From positions 140,816 through 204,815 of the forward strand of contig JAIELQ010000005.1 of assembly GCA_019752815.1 (NCBI GenBank): a DNA stretch of 64,000 nt, in the 5' to 3' direction. The translations under genes and the position numbers were made by a program. The notes below the pieces were generated by a model. The model ran no database searches. It saw nothing but the letters and a program-made list of their open reading frames with translations, and was not told where the DNA came from. Source of the stretch: Patescibacteria group bacterium (GTDB lineage: Bacteria; Patescibacteriota; Minisyncoccia; Phycocordibacterales; UBA918). Below are positions 6,008 through 53,222 of the stretch, one piece after another (the first letter of the stretch is position 1; each line of letters opens with the position of its first letter).

Positions 6008-6361
6008 TTATTCTTTGTGCCAACGGCGATTGAGATAGTAGCCCATACCATACTCAGCCATAATGATGTTGGTATATCCTGTGGCGTCCTTGATCTTCTT
6101 TTTTATTCTTGAAACATACGCGTCAATCGACCGAAGTCGTTGCCTTCCACGTTTGTACGGGCCGTGTTTCTGGGCTTCTAGCAAAGTTTCCCGGCTGAAA
6201 ATTGTATCCGGCTTAGACAAAAGCAGGCTAAATATCATCATTTCTCGCACGGTGAGTGCAACTGGCGTTCCTTTTATGTATACATCAATTTCACTACACC
6301 AGATGTCTTTGACGAGGGGCTTTGTCTTCCGGTCGGGTACGATATTGCTATGCTGAAGCAT
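6008..6361 (-). CDS. Stand-alone OmpR/PhoB-type winged-helix DNA-binding protein (trans_reg_C domain only, no receiver)
   Basis: 117 aa; LTVREMMIFSLLLSKPDTIFSRETLLE...IDAYVSRIKKKI...GMGY matches the OmpR C-terminal effector domain pattern. Confidence 0.6.
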   Translation of the reverse strand: MLQHSNIVPDRKTKPLVKDIWCSEIDVYIKGTPVALTVREMMIFSLLLSKPDTIFSRETLLEAQKHGPYKRGRQRLRSIDAYVSRIKKKIKDATGYTNIIMAEYGMGYYLNRRWHKE

Positions 6362-6423
6362 GAACCACTGTCTCCTGGGTGAACTATTTGTCAGTAGTAT
6401 GTCAGGGAATCTATTGTTGTCAA

Positions 6424-6451
6424 TAAAAAACGCGGACCAGGTTGGTCCGCG
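6424..6451 (-). terminator. Terminator downstream of the response-regulator-like gene (minus strand)
   Basis: CGCGGACC-AGGTT-GGTCCGCG hairpin with a T-run on the minus strand. Confidence 0.55.
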
Positions 6452-6460
6452 GTATTCATA

Positions 6461-7144
6461 TTAGATTTCTGTATTTGTGGTGGTGTTGGCAACATCAATT
6501 TTATCTAAATCAATGCGGTAACCAAAACCACTGCCAGTGACGATCATGTGTGGTGACAGACCGCTCTTCTTAAGCTTTTTCCGTAAACGCTTCACGTGAC
6601 TATCGATGAGTCTATCGTGATACTCACCACGTAGTCCGATGACATCCAACAGCTGTTGACGATTGAGGTATCTGCCTTGAGCTGCTAATAACCCTCTAAA
6701 GATACGTATTTCCGTAACGGTGAGGACTGTGGTAACACCATGTATGTTTACGCAATTATCTGTTATATCGATACCTTTAACACTCTGCTTCTCTTTTATT
6801 TCAATTGAGATTGGCGTAGAGAAAAGATTTGCCAGCTCTGTTGGCGTAACTTCACCAGCCAGATATATTACTCCTTGCTCCCAGTAGGTAATAAACTGAC
6901 TGGCTCTGTATTCCGCAGAATAGACTATCACCTTGCTTCGTGGCACTAACTTTCTCATAAGTGTCGGAGAAAGCTTCGTGCCATCCATTTCCTCTATGCA
7001 CGTAACACATTGATCTGGAAGATACTTGCCGTACACAATATCTTCTACAACATCCTCAAGTGTAGTCATGATGAGTTCATAACCTCTTGTCGCTTGCTGA
7101 AACAAATTAGTGATTTTTGGGGTGTTCGAGATAATAAAGAACAT
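6461..7144 (-). CDS. OmpR-family response-regulator-like protein with an atypical receiver domain. The ORF extends to 7237; the likely start is 7144.
   Basis: C-terminal trans_reg_C (TEIRIFRGLLAAQGRYLNRQQLLD...DSHVKRLRKKL...GFGYRI). The N-terminal receiver-like fold lacks the acidic pair (IISNTPK) and the phosphoacceptor Asp (VTCIEEMDG). A strong RBS GGGAGAG lies before the Met at 7144. Confidence 0.6.
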   Translation of the reverse strand: MFFIISNTPKITNLFQQATRGYELIMTTLEDVVEDIVYGKYLPDQCVTCIEEMDGTKLSPTLMRKLVPRSKVIVYSAEYRASQFITYWEQGVIYLAGEVTPTELANLFSTPISIEIKEKQSVKGIDITDNCVNIHGVTTVLTVTEIRIFRGLLAAQGRYLNRQQLLDVIGLRGEYHDRLIDSHVKRLRKKLKKSGLSPHMIVTGSGFGYRIDLDKIDVANTTTNTEI

Positions 7145-7261
7145 GGTAACTCTCCCTGAGTTTTGATTTGACTGTCGGTAGTATGCCAGTAAAGAACTAT
7201 GTGTCAATGGTGAGGGTTTATGATATAATTTGAACATTAATTAATTGGTAATTATTTTGTT

Positions 7262-43836: not shown

Positions 43837-45513
43837 TTAACTCACCAGTGGCAGTGTGAGTACAAACGTTGAGCCACGTTGCTCACCTGCTGAACTACAG
43901 GTAATGTCACCACCCATCGCGCGGGCCATTTCTCGGGCCACAAATAGTCCCAATCCGGTGCCGTTAATGTTTACACTGTTAGCATTTTTAGCCCGACTGA
44001 ATTTCTGGAAGAGGTCATTAATAGTTTCAGGACTCATACCAATACCAGTATCAATAACATTTACAAATAACTGCTTGCGCCCAATATCATCGTACACAAA
44101 TACAGTGATACTTCCCTTTTGGGTGTACTTAAGTGAATTGTTGATGAGGTTATGGAGTATCTGTTGGGTTTTTGAAATATCAGCGTGCACAATACCTTGT
44201 CCCCGCATATCGGACTTAAAGAGTAACAGTAGTCCCGATCGGGTGGCTTCAGGACGCAAGTCGTCAACGATATGTTCGGCTTGCTCCCGGAGATTAAAAT
44301 CAGTATATGTGTACTTCATATTGCCAGATTCGATACGTGAGACATTAAGGAAGTCTTCAATCGAAAACGCCATCAATTTGGCTGATTCATGAATCCGTCC
44401 CAACACCTCGGTCATTTTTTCTGGTGCAGGCCCATAGTTGCCATCAAGAATCATTGACGTATAGCCACGAATAGCCGTCAGTGGACTCCGGAGTTGGTGC
44501 GAAGCAATCGACACAAATTCTGATTTTTGTTGGTCCACAATCCGTAATCGTTCGTTGGTTGATTCCAGATTAGTCGCGAGTTTCTCAATTTCTTCACGTT
44601 GGGTCACTTCACTGCGGACACTTTTGATTAAGAGTGTGCCGAGTACCGAGAAGAACAAAATAGTTCCCACTGCAATAATCTGCGCATTTTCAATTGACCG
44701 CACCAAGAGTAGTGAACACAACAAAATCAACTGTCCGGCCATCAAGGCCTCGGTCGCAAGGAGCTTAATTTTAAATGTTTGATACCGTACGAGGATGTAC
44801 CCCAAAAATGCTACAAATATTGGCATCCCAAATAAACCAATCTGTCCCGATTCCCAGTCACCGTAGAAGCTTCCGATGATGTTGCCAATTGAGAATGAGA
44901 GTAAAAATAACAAGATGCCTGCGGCAACAAGAATGGTCTCACGACGTTCCCGGCGCTTGAGTCTCACTTCTGCAATCGTGAGTAACAAGATTAATCCTAC
45001 AAATAAAAATTCAAAACCGTACACGTAGTACTGCCACAAAGGTCCTTCGGTGGCGTAACGTAAACAGTTGGTAAAATCAAAGTTTACTAGATTTAGTTTG
45101 GTGTGTCCGAATAAAATCAGAGGTAAGAACATTACAAAGATACCCAACTCAACTTTAAATGGTGGAAAAGATTTATTAAAGAAGGCGTATATGAAATAGA
45201 ATGCTCCGACGTACATCAAAAGCTCAAAGTATATTAGCGTGGACCAGACAAACATAATCACGTCCGATCGTTCTGAGGCCCAGATAATGAGGTCAAGGAA
45301 ACACCAAATAGCGAACATCACGGTGGTAAACAGGAGTGCCTGAGCTGCTTTATTGCGCACGTTGGCACGTAATACAAAAATTGCAATAATTAATCCCGAT
45401 ATAGATGGTAAAAAGTGTGCGTAGTACTGGAAACTCCCAATCAGGTTTTCTGACAGAATTAAGTAGGTGGCAGTACCCCAGGAACAAATTGTGGGATCAA
45501 CGATGTTTAGCAT
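43837..45513 (-). CDS. Sensor histidine kinase with a multi-TM N-terminal sensor domain (HK-1)
   Basis: About 7 N-terminal TM helices, a coiled coil, H-box FVSIASHQLRSPLTAIRGYTSMILDG, and HATPase N/G boxes (LINNSLKYT..., IDTGIGM, GTGLGLFVAREM). Confidence 0.85.
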   Translation of the reverse strand: MLNIVDPTICSWGTATYLILSENLIGSFQYYAHFLPSISGLIIAIFVLRANVRNKAAQALLFTTVMFAIWCFLDLIIWASERSDVIMFVWSTLIYFELLMYVGAFYFIYAFFNKSFPPFKVELGIFVMFLPLILFGHTKLNLVNFDFTNCLRYATEGPLWQYYVYGFEFLFVGLILLLTIAEVRLKRRERRETILVAAGILLFLLSFSIGNIIGSFYGDWESGQIGLFGMPIFVAFLGYILVRYQTFKIKLLATEALMAGQLILLCSLLLVRSIENAQIIAVGTILFFSVLGTLLIKSVRSEVTQREEIEKLATNLESTNERLRIVDQQKSEFVSIASHQLRSPLTAIRGYTSMILDGNYGPAPEKMTEVLGRIHESAKLMAFSIEDFLNVSRIESGNMKYTYTDFNLREQAEHIVDDLRPEATRSGLLLLFKSDMRGQGIVHADISKTQQILHNLINNSLKYTQKGSITVFVYDDIGRKQLFVNVIDTGIGMSPETINDLFQKFSRAKNANSVNINGTGLGLFVAREMARAMGGDITCSSAGEQRGSTFVLTLPLVS

Positions 45514-45527
45514 GTAGTAGTAATAAA

Positions 45528-45677
45528 TTAATTAGGATTTTTTTCAGGCCCAGACGGATTGGTCATAACATCGTAGTCTTTTTCTACAATATAGACGAAA
45601 TACATCAAACAAATTGAAATGGTGATGCAAAATGCCAGTATGATGCGCATGATGGTGGCTTTGGTGCTGTCGTGCAT
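45528..45677 (-). CDS. Small single-TM peptide (49 aa) immediately upstream of HK-1
   Basis: MHDSTKATIMRIILAFCITISICLMYFVYIVEKDYDVMTNPSGPEKNPN. Shares the motif Y-x-x-I-(I)-VEK-(N/D)-(F/Y) with the small ORF upstream of HK-2. Below the 60-aa ORF-track cut-off. Confidence 0.3.
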   Translation of the reverse strand: MHDSTKATIMRIILAFCITISICLMYFVYIVEKDYDVMTNPSGPEKNPN

Positions 45678-45692
45678 AGAATGAAATAAGTT

Positions 45693-47354
45693 TTAAATAA
45701 GTGGCAGTGTAATCGTAAAGGTGGAACCGAGACCTTCCCCATCTGACGTTACCGTAATATCGCCACCCATCGCGCGAGCCATTTCTCGGGCGACAAATAA
45801 TCCTAATCCGGTACCCATGATGTTCGCTGAACTGGCCACTTTGGCGCGAGCAAATTTACCAAACAGTTTTTGCAGACTTTCTGGACTTAGTCCGAGGCCG
45901 GTATCGATGATATCGACATACATCTTTTTGGTTTTAACATCGTCGTGGGCATAGACTGTAACACTTCCTTTCGGCGTATACTTCAACGCATTGTTGATAA
46001 GATTATGCAGTATCTGTTGTGTCTTCCCCGCGTCCGCATGAACCATTCCGGTGCCAGTCATATCAGATCGGAACATAAGCAACAGTCCACGACGCACCGC
46101 GTCTGCCCGCAGGTCATCAACTACATGCTCGGCCTGTTCCTTGAAATTCATATCCTTGTAGTCGTACTTCATGTTACCTGATTCAATCCGAGACACCTCC
46201 AAAAAGTCATCAATCGACGATGCCATAAACACTGTTGATTCAGCAATTCGCCCCAGTGCCTCGTTAGCTTTATCCGGCAACTTCCCAAAACTCCCCTCCG
46301 TCATCATCGACACATATCCCCGAATAGCTGTAAGCGGACTACGTAATTGATGTGAAGCAATCGAAACAAACTCCGATTTTTGTTTGTCCAAAATCTGCAA
46401 CCGTTCATTGGCTTTTTCCAGCCCAACAGCCAAGCGTTCAATTTCTGCTTTTTGTTCAAGTTCACGACGCATGACTCTGGAAAGAATTATTCCTAGAAAT
46501 CCAAAAATGATAACAGTAATAAAAATAATTGGGCGTGCGTAACTCATGTCACGAAATAGCAACATTGAAAACATTAGTATCCATAATGCTGAAATAAGTA
46601 TTTCAGTAAATAGAGTTTTTGTGTGAAAGGCACGGTATTTAATTATTGAGTACGATACAAGGCCGGCAAATAATGGCATTCCAAAGAGTTTGTATTGTTC
46701 ATAATAAGGACCAAGGTCAAAGAATAGCGTGAAGTTACCTGCAGTAAAAAATGCTAAAAATATAAACGTAGAAATACCAATGAACAGAAGCTGGCGGCGT
46801 TCGGTTTTCTTTTCTATCCTGCTCAAGCCTTTAATTATAAATAGTACAACTATAAAAAGTAGAAAAACTTCTACAAAGTACATGTATTGAATTACAATCC
46901 CCTCGAATGCCCCTGTGTCACAATCTGGTGACAAGCCAATCACGTTCAAACTTGTATGAGCAAATAATAGAATCGGAACAAGAAGTAGTGAGAAACAAAC
47001 TTTCATCCATGTAGGCATATCAACTTGCCTGTTACTAAAGAGGTATACCAAGTAAACGGCAGAGAGGTACATTAAAAGCTCAACTGGAACAATCAGTGAC
47101 CAGAAAAACACCACCATTTCAGGTGTCGGTGAGGCCCATAAGATTAAGTTAAAGTATACCCATGTCGCAAATAGAACTGTTGTAACAAAGAGAACTCTGT
47201 TCGCAAGCTCTTTTGGATTACTGATAAGGACCTGGAAACCTAAAAACAATGAAATAACAAGTGGTAGTACATGTGTGTAGTAGATAAGCTTACCGACGTT
47301 TTCAGAAAATATGAGTAGGGCTGCGCTCCCCCATTCGCAAGGATTATCTATCAT
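45693..47354 (-). CDS. Sensor histidine kinase, paralog of HK-1 (HK-2)
   Basis: Same architecture; H-box FVSIASHQLRSPLTAIRGYVSMMTEG; N/G boxes LINNALKYT, IDTGLGL, GTGLGLFVAREM. Confidence 0.85.
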   Translation of the reverse strand: MIDNPCEWGSAALLIFSENVGKLIYYTHVLPLVISLFLGFQVLISNPKELANRVLFVTTVLFATWVYFNLILWASPTPEMVVFFWSLIVPVELLMYLSAVYLVYLFSNRQVDMPTWMKVCFSLLLVPILLFAHTSLNVIGLSPDCDTGAFEGIVIQYMYFVEVFLLFIVVLFIIKGLSRIEKKTERRQLLFIGISTFIFLAFFTAGNFTLFFDLGPYYEQYKLFGMPLFAGLVSYSIIKYRAFHTKTLFTEILISALWILMFSMLLFRDMSYARPIIFITVIIFGFLGIILSRVMRRELEQKAEIERLAVGLEKANERLQILDKQKSEFVSIASHQLRSPLTAIRGYVSMMTEGSFGKLPDKANEALGRIAESTVFMASSIDDFLEVSRIESGNMKYDYKDMNFKEQAEHVVDDLRADAVRRGLLLMFRSDMTGTGMVHADAGKTQQILHNLINNALKYTPKGSVTVYAHDDVKTKKMYVDIIDTGLGLSPESLQKLFGKFARAKVASSANIMGTGLGLFVAREMARAMGGDITVTSDGEGLGSTFTITLPLI

Positions 47355-47527
47355 ATATTGTTGTTATGAAAATAGAAGTCTAATGCACTTGGCTCCTCCT
47401 CGTCTGCTGTAAATTGTTTGAAATTCTTTTCAACAATAATATTTACATATGTAGCACCGACAGATAAAAGAATAAAAAAGACAAGAAAAAAATAAAATAT
47501 TAAGCTATTTTTTTCGTGTCGGTTCAT
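47351..47527 (-). CDS. Small single-TM peptide (58 aa) translationally coupled to HK-2 by an ATGA overlap
   Basis: MNRHEKNSLIFYFFLVFFILLSVGATYVNIIVEKNFKQFTADEEEPSALDFYFHNNNI. Its stop TGA overlaps the HK-2 ATG; it starts 4 nt after the SET gene stop. Confidence 0.35.
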   Translation of the reverse strand: MNRHEKNSLIFYFFLVFFILLSVGATYVNIIVEKNFKQFTADEEEPSALDFYFHNNNI

Positions 47528-47531
47528 ATCA

Positions 47532-48014
47532 TTATGTTACAGACAACTTTTTACTCCTCAGTTTCTTGAAAAACGTTGGAATGTATGGAAGGTGGCTCCT
47601 ATACACTTTCTCAGGTAGTCTTTGTATTGAATGAATTTTCTTTCTGCATGAATGAGTTTTGCAGGCGCAAGACATTTCCCAGAGCAAATCACCGTCACTC
47701 ATCGAATAGTCAAAAGTTAGCTCTGTGTCTGGAGCGATACTCTTTAATGCAATGACTTTTTTTCTACCAACAATAGCAGTATTAGGTTCACAGCTATGGT
47801 TAAAATACCTCCAGATCGTATTTTTAGGATCTAGCCAAATAGTATCTGTAATTCCATACCATAAAGGGATACTCGAAGCTTCCTTGGCTGTTTGGGTTTT
47901 CTTCCTGACTAACTCACCTTCTAGGAAAGCGATGTGTTCCCCTTTCTTAATTTTCTCTGAAGAAAATATCCCCTTTCCCTCAATCCTACTTTTTCCGACA
48001 TACAGCTTTTTCAT
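47532..48014 (-). CDS. SET domain protein (putative protein-lysine methyltransferase) with a Cys-rich post-SET region
   Basis: GKGIFSSEKIKKGEHIAFLEGEL (N-SET/GxG), NHSCEPN (the canonical SET NHSCxPN pseudoknot motif), ELTFDY, and post-SET CACKTHSCRKK. Confidence 0.8.
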   Translation of the reverse strand: MKKLYVGKSRIEGKGIFSSEKIKKGEHIAFLEGELVRKKTQTAKEASSIPLWYGITDTIWLDPKNTIWRYFNHSCEPNTAIVGRKKVIALKSIAPDTELTFDYSMSDGDLLWEMSCACKTHSCRKKIHSIQRLPEKVYRSHLPYIPTFFKKLRSKKLSVT

Positions 48015-48019
48015 GGTTC

Positions 48020-48856
48020 TTAAATTGTAGCATGAACATTTTTTGAATTATGATTAATCCCACGTTTTGCCCTCAATGCAAAAATACCTACTAATGCATG
48101 TAAAAAGGCATTGCTTAATGGGTAAAACATTAATGGATGCCAAAGTGCATCATGTGTGATGAATGTTACGATTCCCAGTAGTGCGTATGCCAGAGCCCAA
48201 ATAAACCAAGGTGAAGCAGCTTCGGTGTAATCAGAGTTATAGGTTGTGCGAAGTATTGGGTAAAAGGCTGGAAATGTTGATAGGTTAGATAAAAATAAGA
48301 ACAGAACAACAAATGTTTCTTTTGTTTCAATTTCTAAATTTCCGAACAAAATTAAGAACCATATAGAAACATAGCCAATGGTAATTACTATGTCAGAAAC
48401 AAATGAAAACTTGTCATATTTATCATTAGGCCACCAATCTTCTGGCCACCAATTTGTCGGATCATTTTTTCTGGCTCTTACCCAGCATCTATAAGAAACA
48501 ATGATTGCAAATACAGCACAGACTGACGGTAGAATAAGTTCTGGAAAAGTGGCGTCAGTATCCCATTCGAGAATTGTCAGAATGGCGGTACCATAGGCAA
48601 ACATGAACCAGGTAACCGGATTAGGGTCAATGTCTTCATGAAGTATATAAATTAGGTAACCGACGACTTGTAAGATGCCGGCAATAATACCCAGGAGAAG
48701 TAAAATTGAGATACTGCTTAATGCTTCTGTAGAAGAAAGTTTGTAGAACGCATATGTTCCGATACCATACAGCGTTGTAAAGGTAATAAAAAAGTAAACT
48801 AAAAAACGCACCGGAAACTCAAATGCGAAATTAATTACTTTGGCCACTAGGTTCAT
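48020..48856 (-). CDS. Trp-rich polytopic membrane protein, paralog A (family unknown)
   Basis: 8 TM; motifs TWFMFAYGTAILTILEWD, WWPEDWWPND, NLSTFPAFYPILRTTY. AT-rich codon usage like the rest of the window. Confidence 0.55.
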   Translation of the reverse strand: MNLVAKVINFAFEFPVRFLVYFFITFTTLYGIGTYAFYKLSSTEALSSISILLLLGIIAGILQVVGYLIYILHEDIDPNPVTWFMFAYGTAILTILEWDTDATFPELILPSVCAVFAIIVSYRCWVRARKNDPTNWWPEDWWPNDKYDKFSFVSDIVITIGYVSIWFLILFGNLEIETKETFVVLFLFLSNLSTFPAFYPILRTTYNSDYTEAASPWFIWALAYALLGIVTFITHDALWHPLMFYPLSNAFLHALVGIFALRAKRGINHNSKNVHATI

Positions 48857-48967
48857 TTCTACAGTATAGAGTATTTTATCAATATATTTTGAAATGTGCG
48901 GGGATTTACATATTTAGAAAATAAAAAATTCACCCGACGCCATATTGTTATGGCGTCGGGTGGTGTT

Positions 48968-49744
48968 TTACTCGGCAGGGTTCATTACCGCCGGTTTTGG
49001 TTCTCTTCCGGCAAAGATGGCCATGAGACCATGCATTACGGTGTTGATGACCGGATAGGACATCAGCGCCAAGAATGCATAGAAGCTGACGTCCCAAGTA
49101 AGCGGCGAAGCGCTTATCGGCCAGACCATGCCGTCGCTTCCATGTACCCAGGTGGGTACGAGGAGTAATGCATAGGCCACGGCCCAGATTGTCCACGGAC
49201 GAGCATCCTCTTTTTCCGGATGGGCCCAGGCCTGCCGCAGGATTGGCACGAAGTTCGGAAACGTCGTCAGGTTTGACGCAACCAGGAAGGCAATAACCCA
49301 CCACAGGTGCGTGTTCCCTTCTGTCGTTCCAAACAGAGTGAAGATCCAAAGAACGGTGTAGCAGATGGTCAGCGCGATGTCAGCGGCAAATGCCTTGCCA
49401 TCGGTTTCCTTCCACTCGACTTTCCATTCTTGTGGCCACCACTCCCCCGTCAGACGGAGGTTTGCGCGCCAGATTCCAACTGCCACCCCAATGCCCCCGA
49501 GGGAACAAATGATAGGCAGCAACAGAACACTGAATACATTCATCCACGAAACATCGGCAGCCGCTTCCTTCCACATGGAGTCAAGCTCCATGACGGTCAG
49601 AAGTGCTGTTCCGTACGCGAACATGAACCACGTCAGCGGTTCTGCTTCCTTGCCTTCCTTACGGATGACAAGGATATAGTAAGCGATGTATCCAGCAAGC
49701 TGGAAAATTCCGGCCGCAAGGCCAAAGTAAGTCGCATCGACCAT
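48968..49744 (-). CDS. Trp-rich polytopic membrane protein, paralog B, encoded in a GC-rich block
   Basis: Shares the motifs TWFMFAYGTALLTVMELD, WWPQEWKVEWKE, NLTTFPNFVPILRQAW with paralog A at moderate identity. DNA composition is markedly GC-richer than the flanks. Confidence 0.55.
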   Translation of the reverse strand: MVDATYFGLAAGIFQLAGYIAYYILVIRKEGKEAEPLTWFMFAYGTALLTVMELDSMWKEAAADVSWMNVFSVLLLPIICSLGGIGVAVGIWRANLRLTGEWWPQEWKVEWKETDGKAFAADIALTICYTVLWIFTLFGTTEGNTHLWWVIAFLVASNLTTFPNFVPILRQAWAHPEKEDARPWTIWAVAYALLLVPTWVHGSDGMVWPISASPLTWDVSFYAFLALMSYPVINTVMHGLMAIFAGREPKPAVMNPAE

Positions 49745-49837: not shown

Positions 49838-50320
49838 TTAGTTTTCTATAATAATCACTCTCTCACTTTCAGTTGGTTCCTCAAATGCATCGATTGTTTG
49901 CTGAACTAACTCCCTACTAACTTTTGATCTTGTTGGATTCAGGTTGTTTTCTTCCCAACGTTGCCAAATTGTTTCGGTAGATGTTTTTACATAAATCACC
50001 TTACACTCAACATTGTTAGCTCTTGCTATCGCACGCAGTTTATCCCGACTAGCTACAGTATGATTGGTAGAATCATACAAAACCGACTTCCCTGCTTGTA
50101 GCGCACCAGCTGTCAGCTCATAGGAGGTATTAAATATCACATCCCACTCCTGTGTATCAGGAAGCTTGTTGTCATCCCAGCTAAAACCATTTGATTCAAA
50201 CAGCGAGTCAATACTTATCAGTTCAATATCAGTTTCAGCTACAATTTGTCGAGCAAGATAAGACTTCCCGGAATATGGATGTCCGCATAAGATAAATAGA
50301 GTACATTTTGAGTGCTGCAT
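49838..50320 (-). CDS. P-loop NTPase, predicted small kinase (AAA_33/zeta-toxin-like fold)
   Basis: Walker A CGHPYSGKSYLA at the N-terminus; 160 aa. Confidence 0.55.
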   Translation of the reverse strand: MQHSKCTLFILCGHPYSGKSYLARQIVAETDIELISIDSLFESNGFSWDDNKLPDTQEWDVIFNTSYELTAGALQAGKSVLYDSTNHTVASRDKLRAIARANNVECKVIYVKTSTETIWQRWEENNLNPTRSKVSRELVQQTIDAFEEPTESERVIIIEN

Positions 50321-50338: not shown

Positions 50339-51172
50339 CTATTTTAGTTTAGTCGTCTTAACGAATTCTTTAACTTTTTTAACATCAATTCTTTGTTCAA
50401 ATCCTTTTACGTTTCTTTCACCAGCCTTATTTGTGCCTGACTTTAAAGCCGTGCTCACAATTGCTCCATTTGAATTTTCCAATAAACCTTTAATGTTATC
50501 AACGCTCGCTCCACTGCCAACCAAAATTGGGAAATCTTGAATATTCTTACGTAGTTTAGAAACGGTCTCAGCAGTAGGTGCTTGTCCTGTCCAGTCGCCT
50601 GTAACTATTACAGCATCTGCCCCAGCTTTGATTGCTTTTTTACTTGCCGCTTCAAGCGTGTGAGTCGTTATGTGTTTTGAGTGCTTAACTAACACATCAG
50701 CAAATAGAGCGACATTATTTGCTAGATACAGTTTTTGAATCGCTTTAACATGCTTTGGATTTCCTGTGATGACACCACAATATGGTTCAACCGTATCGAC
50801 AAATACTGGAATACGAATAAATTTTAAATCATATGTATGAGCAAGAGCAAAAGCAACCTCATAATCATTCCAAAGGACGCTGGCACCGAGCGGTAATCTT
50901 GTATGTTTTTTTAGCTCGTTTATGAGATAACCCATTGCAATAGCTACTGAGGAATCAATTTTTTCTTTTGAAAGTCCGTAGTTATTCTCAATAAAAATAC
51001 CGTCAACCCCACCTGCTTCAAAGGTCTTTAAGTCAGCAATAGCGTATTTAAGTGCATGCTTGTATCCTGCGAAATCATCAAATCCCAACAGTGGTGGAAA
51101 ATGTAAAGCTCCAATAACTATATTTTTGTCTTTTTTAAAGATTTTTTTAAGAGGGTTTACCATGCTGCACAT
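50339..51172 (-). CDS. BtpA/SgcQ family TIM-barrel protein
   Basis: IVIGALHFPPLLG, FIENNYG, VLVKHS, AVIVTGDWTGQAP, LVGSGASVDNI, NGAIVSTALK follow the BtpA family pattern. Confidence 0.6.
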   Translation of the reverse strand: MCSMVNPLKKIFKKDKNIVIGALHFPPLLGFDDFAGYKHALKYAIADLKTFEAGGVDGIFIENNYGLSKEKIDSSVAIAMGYLINELKKHTRLPLGASVLWNDYEVAFALAHTYDLKFIRIPVFVDTVEPYCGVITGNPKHVKAIQKLYLANNVALFADVLVKHSKHITTHTLEAASKKAIKAGADAVIVTGDWTGQAPTAETVSKLRKNIQDFPILVGSGASVDNIKGLLENSNGAIVSTALKSGTNKAGERNVKGFEQRIDVKKVKEFVKTTKLK

Positions 51173-52522: not shown

Positions 52523-53213
52523 AATCTTAGGGGTTAAACCCCTAAGATTGTTATACTTAAATTAATGCCACGAAAAATAATCCCACTTATTACTGGTGAT
52601 ATATATCATGTGTACAATCGGGGTGTAGATAAACGTGAAATTTTTTTAGATAAAGAAGATTACCTCAGATTTTATATATCGTTGGATTTCTTTAATGTTA
52701 TTGAGCCTGTGATAAATTTTGATAGTGCAAAAGTAAGAAAAGATAGAAATCTTAAGGAAGATAAATTAGTTGAAATTCTCGCATATTCCCTGTTACCAAA
52801 TCACTTCCATTTAATATTGCAACAAAATGTAGATAGAGGAATAAGTGAATTTATGAAGCGAATTTCTGGTGGGTATACTAGTTATTTTAATTCAAAACTT
52901 GAGAGATCGGGTTCCTTACTTCAAGGTACATTTAAAAAAGTACCAGTTCAGAGTCAAGAACAATTACAGTATTTAATGGCTTATGTAAATGAAAATCATT
53001 TTGTGCATGGTATAGAAATTAAACGTGAAATTTGTCACTCGAGCTCACTGCACTACCAAGGTCTTAATAAAAGCAAAATAATTAATCAATCAAATGAGAA
53101 GTATAACTTTGAAAGTAATGTACTTCTAGCAAAAGACATCTACCAAAAAAGACGAAGTTTAAAGTACTCAGATTTAATGGAAAACTAATCTTAGGGGTTT
53201 AACCCCTAAGATT
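52523..53213 (+). mobile_element. IS200-like/RAYT transposase unit: a HuH tyrosine transposase gene flanked on both sides by near-identical palindromic hairpins
   Basis: Left hairpin AATCTTAGGGG-TTAAA-CCCCTAAGATT (52523-52549). Right hairpin AATCTTAGGGG-TTTAA-CCCCTAAGATT (53187-53213) overlapping the transposase stop. No other copies seen in the window. Confidence 0.7.
52565..53188 (+). CDS. IS200-like / REP-associated tyrosine transposase (RAYT, TnpA_REP)
   Basis: GDIYHVYNRGVDKREIFLDKEDYLRFY..., then HuH motif LPNHFHLILQ, and downstream Tyr-containing YLMAYVNENH. Confidence 0.7.
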   Translation: MPRKIIPLITGDIYHVYNRGVDKREIFLDKEDYLRFYISLDFFNVIEPVINFDSAKVRKDRNLKEDKLVEILAYSLLPNHFHLILQQNVDRGISEFMKRISGGYTSYFNSKLERSGSLLQGTFKKVPVQSQEQLQYLMAYVNENHFVHGIEIKREICHSSSLHYQGLNKSKIINQSNEKYNFESNVLLAKDIYQKRRSLKYSDLMEN

Positions 53214-53222
53214 AGGGCGTTG

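Follow-up and report, generated by a model that had tools for sequence, protein, structure and literature searches.

A conserved gene cassette of a seven-helix membrane protein, a SET-domain protein, a one-helix peptide and a sensor histidine kinase in the candidate phyla radiation

The gene string in the window

The window analysed here, a 64-kb stretch of DNA from a Patescibacteria group bacterium, carries on its minus strand a compact string of genes in which a SET-domain methyltransferase is encoded between a seven-transmembrane (7TM) protein and two successive pairs of a small one-helix peptide and a sensor histidine kinase. The first gene of this cassette, TM278 (48020..48856), encodes an eight-helix membrane protein predicted to have a 7TM fold of the PQ-loop/SWEET/KDEL-receptor-like type plus an extra N-terminal helix, and it is followed after a gap of 5 nt by the SET methyltransferase gene (47532..48014), whose 160-aa product is predicted to be cytoplasmic and carries, besides the post-SET Cys cluster, a C-terminal extension that is conserved. 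Only 4 nt separate SET from pep58 (47351..47527), which encodes a 58-aa single-pass protein predicted to lie N-in/C-out, the partner of HK-2 and a seed of the family profile (match 8e-26). The stop codon of pep58 overlaps by 4 nt (ATGA) the start of HK-2 (45693..47354), a kinase of 553 aa with about nine predicted transmembrane (TM) helices, an N-terminus outside, a coiled linker, and the HisKA and HATPase_c domains. After 15 nt comes pep49 (45528..45677; 49 aa, single-pass), a paralogue of pep58 and the partner of HK-1, and after a further 14 nt HK-1 itself (43837..45513; 558 aa), which has the same architecture as HK-2 and is 50% identical to it over 555 columns. The open reading frames (ORFs) from SET to HK-1 and their junctions agree with an earlier sequence-only reading of this DNA, which also recognized correctly that the two kinases are paralogues and that each peptide had been duplicated together with its kinase as one unit; the same two pairs are present in a Kaiserbacteria locus, L003 (L and P numbers denote the loci and proteins of relatives in this analysis). 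The operon that had been described holds for the genes listed in it, but its beginning has to be moved upstream of 48014, with TM278 as a fourth member.

Much of this string is hidden in the public annotation. In GenBank, pep58 has no entry, the accessions of HK-2 (MBY0538154.1) and SET (MBY0538155.1) being consecutive, and its exact sequence was not found in a collection of 15 billion proteins. The label of pep49 is hypothetical protein K2P47_02000, and that of HK-1 merely “hypothetical protein”; HK-2 is called “HAMP domain-containing”, yet Pfam detects no HAMP in it. TM278 is 100% identical to NCBI K2P47_02015.

Recurrence of the cassette and natural fusions

With the kinase sensor domain as query, a word-indexed protein search returned seven relatives, two of which showed SET, small ORF and kinase in this order on their contigs. 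When one genome per species was scanned with a sensor-domain alignment, 54 loci came up, with sensor-domain identities running from 88%, in a Kaiserbacteria metagenome-assembled genome (MAG), down to about 30%, and an exhaustive profile search found the same domain in 1090 clusters (50% identity), of which 273 reached E <= 1e-30. With 1090 clusters, the sensor-domain family must be regarded as common and not rare, and the result with seven relatives as misleading. Most of the scanned loci come from MAGs of the candidate phyla radiation (CPR), where the informative titles name Paceibacterota, Nomurabacteria, Moraniibacteriota, Komeilibacteria and Minisyncoccia; many other loci bear the label Saccharibacteria, and some few that of Bdellovibrionales or Nanoarchaeia, all of these labels being those deposited.

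The six-frame ORFs of every locus were scanned with small profiles, for which the window and the first two loci supplied the sequences. Directly upstream and on the same strand, TM, SET and peptide genes together accompany 36 of the 62 family kinase genes (57 loci), TM and SET accompany 11, and SET alone 7; a profile rebuilt from 46 peptides picks up another five short ones. The order SET, peptide, kinase recurs in about 50 CPR genomes, and with its same-strand arrangement in most of the 57 CPR loci the neighbourhood seen in the window proves to be conserved. Look-ups anchored on TM278 homologues recovered the same cassette in 3/3 cases, with the small ORF called at 56–69 aa by independent gene callers. 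About 20 loci have dnaK-dnaJ ... trpS-aspS surroundings in common, and the block is also intact under different flanks, for example in L009, L012, L020, L021, L023, L030, L039, L044, L050 and L055. For comparison, the surroundings of other, mostly unrelated bacterial SET genes (80 loci, 27–43% identity) served as a control and showed no recurrent neighbour, and only one of them (L058) had TM, peptide and kinase genes; therefore, the link to the cassette is specific to this SET subfamily.

The small proteins are genuine members of this arrangement. Both pep58 and pep49 have a single hydrophobic helix, basic on its N-side and acidic on its C-side, and they share the motif YxxxIVEK[ND][FY] (YVNIIVEKNF and YFVYIVEKDY, respectively), which had already been noticed by the sequence-only reading; BLASTP alone finds no similarity between the two, and it is the family profile that joins them. 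Altogether, 46 peptides of 41–70 aa align nearly gap-free over a core formed by KKSKIF, a helix with a central Ser and the motif TYYxxxVxKDFxIFTxEE, after which come variable acidic tails. Compared with its L003 orthologue, pep58 shows a proportion of nonsynonymous differences (pN) of 0.18 against 0.855 for synonymous ones (pS; saturated), that is, a pN/pS of about 0.2, and pep49 shows a ratio of nonsynonymous to synonymous substitution rates (dN/dS) of 0.149, so that the small ORFs are conserved under purifying selection. In six loci without the short peptide, the cassette contains a longer, Cys-rich protein whose N-terminal helix and motif are those of the peptide (L011 7163-7504, L012 4281-4868, L028 5360-6358, L029 5885-6343, L030 6384-6707 and L034 3683-4261); these proteins of roughly 100–330 aa are acidic and apparently exported, contain YYxxxVxKDY, have no Pfam match, and may represent an ancestral, ectodomain-bearing form of the small subunit.

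In L048, P0186, P0222, P0235 and P0246 (at least five lineages), the kinase ORF itself begins with the peptide, which a short linker connects to the usual start of the kinase, C-E-W, and P0176, P0255 and P0278 were judged by eye to be peptide-kinase fusions too. This arrangement fits the predicted topologies, with the peptide N-in/C-out and the kinase N-terminus outside, and these natural fusions strongly back the earlier suggestion that the small peptide may be a subunit of the kinase, an association to which the joint duplication of peptide and kinase also points. On the other side of the cassette, TM and SET form a single ORF with the 7TM domain first in L005 (=P0128), L029 and P0129 (at least three lineages), and therefore the C-terminus of the 7TM protein should be cytoplasmic and SET should work at the membrane. 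Since each pair is fused in some lineages, 7TM-SET and peptide-kinase are probably two physically coupled pairs.

Component proteins, receivers and surroundings

The SET call of the sequence-only reading passed the Pfam search (PF00856) at E 1.6e-13, with 51.4 bits against a cut-off of 22.4 and the full profile (1–105) covered, and the catalytic motifs are all present (GKG, NHSCEPN, ELTFDYS and CACKTHSC in the window); across 55 SET copies of the family, GxG, NHSCxPN, ExxxDYS and the post-SET CxCxxxxC are kept. The best solved relatives are the SET and post-SET domains of MLL/KMT2/SET1 (5e-9), with the motifs aligning to those of the MLL1 SET/post-SET region, and a weaker relative (9e-5) is BurB, a SET-domain enzyme that methylates methionine, a free amino acid (PMC12542666). 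The cassette enzyme may transfer methyl groups to protein lysine or, like BurB, to a small molecule. No TM segment was predicted in SET. Its C-terminal extension occurs also in SETs outside the cassette, according to a SET-anchored metagenome scan. Tandem SET duplicates lie inside the cassette in L002 (1569-2590) and also in L011, L029 and L034, and P0138 (313 aa) is a single protein with two fused SET domains, which hints at a possible dimeric action of the enzyme.

TM278 has no Pfam match even at E <= 10, no NCBIfam match and no PQ motif, and it shows the 3+1+3 seven-helix PQ-loop/SWEET fold. The closest folds belong to transporters, namely cystinosin, SWEET and the mitochondrial pyruvate carrier, but an equally good score is obtained with the KDEL receptor, which shares this fold and is not a transporter. 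Its homologues form at least 147 clusters, every one of them unnamed or hypothetical. A linkage of heliorhodopsin to kinases has been reported in Patescibacteria (PMC8612252), and a heliorhodopsin identity was considered for the 7TM protein and ruled out, given that there is no Pfam Heliorhodopsin match and that the fold is PQ-loop/SWEET and not rhodopsin. The W-rich cytoplasmic loop WWPEDWWP was likewise rejected as a docking site for SET: it is absent in 3/3 fusions but also in 39/48 unfused members, and it is limited to the close relatives of the window.

In the two kinases, Pfam finds HisKA at 7e-16 and 5.6e-17 and HATPase_c at 7e-23 and 2e-24. Among 56 kinases, the catalytic residues H335, N451/N455, D484-G486-G488, F498 and G516/G518 are at least 90% conserved, and so are C6, W8, Y25, Y26, H28, W65, W73, W85, C145, E151, G152, Y159 and E162 in the outside half, so that in the predicted topology the most conserved surface of the sensor faces outward; C6 and C145, both in segments predicted to be outside, may form a disulfide. 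The membrane domain was modelled as a bundle resembling a G-protein-coupled receptor (GPCR). HK-2 reaches HisKA_7TM (PF16927) with 16.5 bits (E 0.0078), below the gathering score of 28.6, its residues 31–244 aligning to positions 5–221 of the 224 in the profile; HK-1 has no match to this profile, and one relative has a weak precomputed one, which indicates a domain distantly related to HisKA_7TM and not a member of it. Three relatives, P0235 (755 aa), P0254 (740 aa) and P0163 (665 aa), have 100–200 extra residues between the membrane domain and DHp, which may be an insert of the PAS/GAF type.

No receiver domain was found in the 64-kb window, either by phmmer with CheY, OmpR, Spo0F and NarL or with a REC profile that, applied to other loci, recovers such genes at 1e-8 to 1e-48; the window thus lacks the classical two-component layout, in which a REC gene lies in the same operon. 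The earlier remark that no receiver gene is adjacent therefore extends to the whole window, although “orphan” should be understood only as having none adjacent, since 5/57 related loci have REC within 8 kb. All five are REC-only proteins, with single or tandem REC and no DNA-binding output (L015 6378-6770, L023 9657-10130, L025 6262-6690, L028 11391-12236 and L034 11197-12033), and L023 also has a REC+Trans_reg_C gene 5 kb off; in this sample of five loci, the REC-only neighbours hint at an output through protein-protein contacts. Two minus-strand neighbours of each other that are the sole regulator-like genes in the window, encoding Trans_reg_C proteins with OmpR-type winged helices, were rejected as partner regulators because they lie 37 kb away (6008-7237), have no normal receiver and show no sign of a link: the one of 117 aa (6008-6361) has no receiver, and the one of 258 aa (6461-7237) has a degenerate receiver-like N-terminus without the usual acidic pocket. 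Both may be phosphorylation-independent regulators.

Membership in anti-phage defence was also discarded, given that PADLOC returned only generic matches of the HATPase_c region to PDC-M43B (1e-6) and none for SET, the TM proteins or the peptides. In the literature, no description of a SET-kinase or PQ-loop-SET module was found, also when looking for a lysine methyltransferase of CPR/Parcubacteria, and PQ-loop together with SET gave only one unrelated plant-genomics paper.

At the upstream edge of the cassette, a strong bidirectional hairpin (48930..48963, assigned to no strand; stem of 14–15 bp, nine G-C pairs, T runs) is likely the terminator that marks this boundary. Upstream of it lies TM258 (48968..49744, minus strand), a TM278 paralogue (42% identity) without a SET of its own, related to the cassette but probably on a separate transcript; the two-copy arrangement of the TM258/TM278 type is found also in L003, L042 and L048. 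Further upstream, on the same strand and outside the conserved cassette, are a small kinase of the KTI12/AAA_33 type (49838-50320) and a BtpA-family protein (50339-51172). An IS200-like Y1 transposase ORF (52565-53188, plus strand; Pfam Y1_Tnp 2.9e-7) occupies the region 52523-53215, bounded on both sides by the near-perfect palindrome CTTAGGGGTT(A/T)AACCCCTAAG (52526-52546 and 53190-53210) in inverted orientation, of which the window has no further copies; it could be an IS200/IS605-type element or a REP-associated tyrosine transposase (RAYT) with ends like repetitive extragenic palindromes (REP).

A possible signalling module, its rivals and its meaning

We suggest, with somewhat less than even confidence, that the cassette is a four-component membrane signalling module inherited throughout the Paceibacteria/Parcubacteria part of the CPR, the sensor half of which is duplicated in this genome. 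Much firmer is the joint proposal on its parts: judged from sequence, the peptide is very probably a detached part of its kinase, SET is held at the membrane by the 7TM protein, and the kinase is competent, with its receiver encoded elsewhere. The small protein would work as a detachable extra TM helix (“TM0”) of the kinase, predicted N-in/C-out, presenting TYYxxxVxKDFxIFTxEE on the outer face beside the outside N-terminus and the conserved outer loops of the kinase; SET would be a cytoplasmic methyltransferase tethered by the PQ-loop-fold 7TM protein; and the catalytically competent kinase would pass its phosphate to a receiver encoded away from the cassette. A further step is doubtful, namely that the two pairs form one complex and that SET, from its tether, methylates a lysine in one component: in a loop or domain on the cytoplasmic side of the kinase, in a REC partner, or in the 7TM protein. 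Methylation would then set or adapt kinase output in a CheR-like manner, with the 7TM protein as the tether and possibly as a ligand-binding co-sensor. We keep this step low because no invariant cytoplasmic lysine was pinned down. For the joint action of both pairs, the interleaved order, kept independently of context, and the tight coupling of the coding regions are good comparative evidence, not proof; the earlier idea of a SET wired to kinases stands as regards the conserved gene order, and the biochemical link is read solely from that order.

Several observations weigh against this explanation. The link between the SET/7TM and kinase/peptide pairs is one of conserved adjacency, no fusion or direct evidence bridging them, and L015, L016 and L024 keep the kinase without a detectable SET. 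Proteins of the PQ-loop fold are mostly transporters, and SET domains can act on small molecules, with BurB (PMC12542666) a detectable relative. The topologies are predictions, and the model of the kinase TM domain is moderate in confidence, with a predicted local distance difference test score (pLDDT) of 70. No strictly conserved cytoplasmic lysine is evident; K118 and K246 of the kinase loops are about 75% conserved. The juxtamembrane lysine of the peptide (KKSK), tried as a SET target, found no support, given that it is replaced by R in several members and missing in both peptides of the window; this position behaves as a positive-inside topology signal.

Three rival explanations were considered. 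UhpC/UhpB and BceAB/BceS pair a transporter with a multi-pass kinase, and the cassette might in the same way serve transport-coupled chemistry, with SET at the cytoplasmic mouth of a transporter methylating a small amine or thioether in transit, be it free lysine, methionine, a polyamine or a lipid head group, and the kinase and peptide sensing the compound or its flux. The transporter folds nearest to TM278 and the C-terminal fusion of SET, which puts the enzyme at the cytoplasmic face, agree with this, as do the action of BurB on a free amino acid and a conserved outer face of the kinase with many W, Y, H and acidic residues, which would suit a cationic-ligand site. We consider it rather unlikely, however, given that SET, with its post-SET intact, is nearer to the protein-lysine enzymes MLL/SET1 than to BurB (5e-9 vs. 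9e-5), that TM278 lacks a PQ motif and any Pfam PQ-loop or MtN3 match, with the KDEL receptor scoring equally well, and that no metabolic genes are conserved around the cassette. Less probable still is the possibility that two unrelated pairs merely travel together by vertical inheritance within a stable housekeeping region, TM-SET methylating a non-signalling target such as a nucleoid or ribosomal protein, as SET proteins of Chlamydia or Methanosarcina do, and the peptide-kinase pair acting as an orphan sensor of the usual kind. In prokaryotes, the SET substrates that are known bind DNA, no fusion spans both pairs, and about 20 loci share the dnaK-dnaJ ... trpS-aspS neighbourhood; moreover, the cassette runs downstream of HK-1 into a weak HIT-like gene and then trpS at gaps of 6 and 21 nt, and therefore unrelated genes share its strand and spacing too. 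But mere co-travelling hardly accounts for four contiguous genes in the same order under different flanks, down to about 30% kinase identity, nor for SET sitting between the 7TM gene and the peptide-kinase pair; a permanently membrane-bound SET, as in the fusion lineages, is ill-suited to a nucleoid substrate, and other bacterial SET genes have no such neighbours.

Peptide quorum sensing of the ComQXPA/Agr type, where SET would modify a precursor with a signal-like N-terminus encoded by the small ORF, the 7TM protein would export or process it, and the kinase would sense the released C-terminal peptide, is the least probable of these explanations and, in our opinion, very unlikely. The cassette order does resemble comQ-comX-comP and agrB-agrD-agrC, in both of which an enzyme or membrane protein, a small ORF and a multi-pass kinase follow one another, and the peptides (41–70 aa), in which a basic N-region precedes a hydrophobic stretch and the acidic C-terminal tails vary between lineages, are reminiscent of such precursors. 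In contrast, the peptide-kinase fusions in at least five lineages favour permanent association over release, the hydrophobic stretch of about 20 residues has the length of an anchor, and conservation in the peptide lies in the helix with its juxtamembrane motif and not in the tail. Furthermore, the outer face of the kinase is its most conserved region, whereas pherotype systems diversify there, and domain searches found no homologous component, that is, no ComQ-, AgrB-, ComA- or AgrA-like gene, nor any adjacent regulator.

Returning to the four-component signalling module, its parts resemble several known systems only in part. MgrB and SafA act on PhoQ as small membrane-protein partners (reviews PMC8534201 and PMC12648545; MgrB study PMC8404706), and like them the cassette peptides are single-pass proteins of about 50 aa that go with a membrane sensor kinase and would act through the membrane or the outer face. 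Profile searches of Pfam and NCBIfam show no sequence similarity between them, and, unlike MgrB and SafA, which are regulon members encoded away from phoQ and unfused, the cassette peptide is translationally coupled to its kinase, duplicated with it, and in some lineages is the kinase's first helix. The kinases have, as HisKA_7TM kinases do, a multi-pass helical sensor domain directly before the DHp/CA core, but differ in their number of helices (about nine), in a pair of outside Cys residues (C6/C145) and in a TM0 split off as a subunit. TM278 differs from cystinosin, SWEET and the KDEL receptor in being bacterial, in having no sequence-level membership and, in this genome, an extra N-terminal helix, and in belonging to a family partnered with or fused to a SET enzyme.

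As for the enzyme, it is a minimal SET protein with intact S-adenosylmethionine-binding and catalytic motifs, like the prokaryotic cpnSET, Go1-SET, RomA and BurB. Chlamydia cpnSET, Methanosarcina Go1-SET and Legionella RomA act on histone-like or host proteins, and we know of no SET of the cpnSET/Go1-SET/RomA/BurB type that is tethered to the membrane or lies inside a sensor-kinase operon. The likeness to CheR/CheB is one of function only, by analogy: in both cases, genes for a methyltransferase, a membrane sensor and a histidine kinase occur together, which could serve covalent adaptation. CheR belongs to the class I methyltransferases and modifies glutamate, whereas the cassette has a SET enzyme for which lysine is presumed, and it has no demethylase, methyl-accepting chemotaxis protein (MCP), CheW or CheA.

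Kinase-regulating small proteins and 7TM sensor kinases were already known, and the new element is the membrane-tethered SET in a sensor-kinase operon. If the module works as proposed, this would be, to our knowledge, the first SET-kinase signalling partnership in prokaryotes, with a GPCR-like 7TM kinase, a detachable TM0 and a co-receptor of the KDEL-receptor/SWEET fold in a single complex; that lysine methylation by a membrane-tethered SET, built into the sensor complex of a kinase, constitutes a new bacterial signalling device is possible, though we would regard it with some scepticism. Such a device would give the ultra-small CPR cells a covalent layer of memory or adaptation, or a non-transcriptional output through REC-only partners. 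The cassette also offers a natural case of a sensor kinase with its first TM helix on a separate small gene, which informs the control of kinases by small proteins, and it exposes gaps in annotation: pep58 absent from GenBank, HK-1 left as “hypothetical”, and a 7TM family without a Pfam model. CPR/Patescibacteria have tiny genomes and very few regulators, and a module kept across the whole class, down to about 30% identity in the sensor domain, is therefore likely central to the way in which these bacteria sense their surroundings or their hosts.

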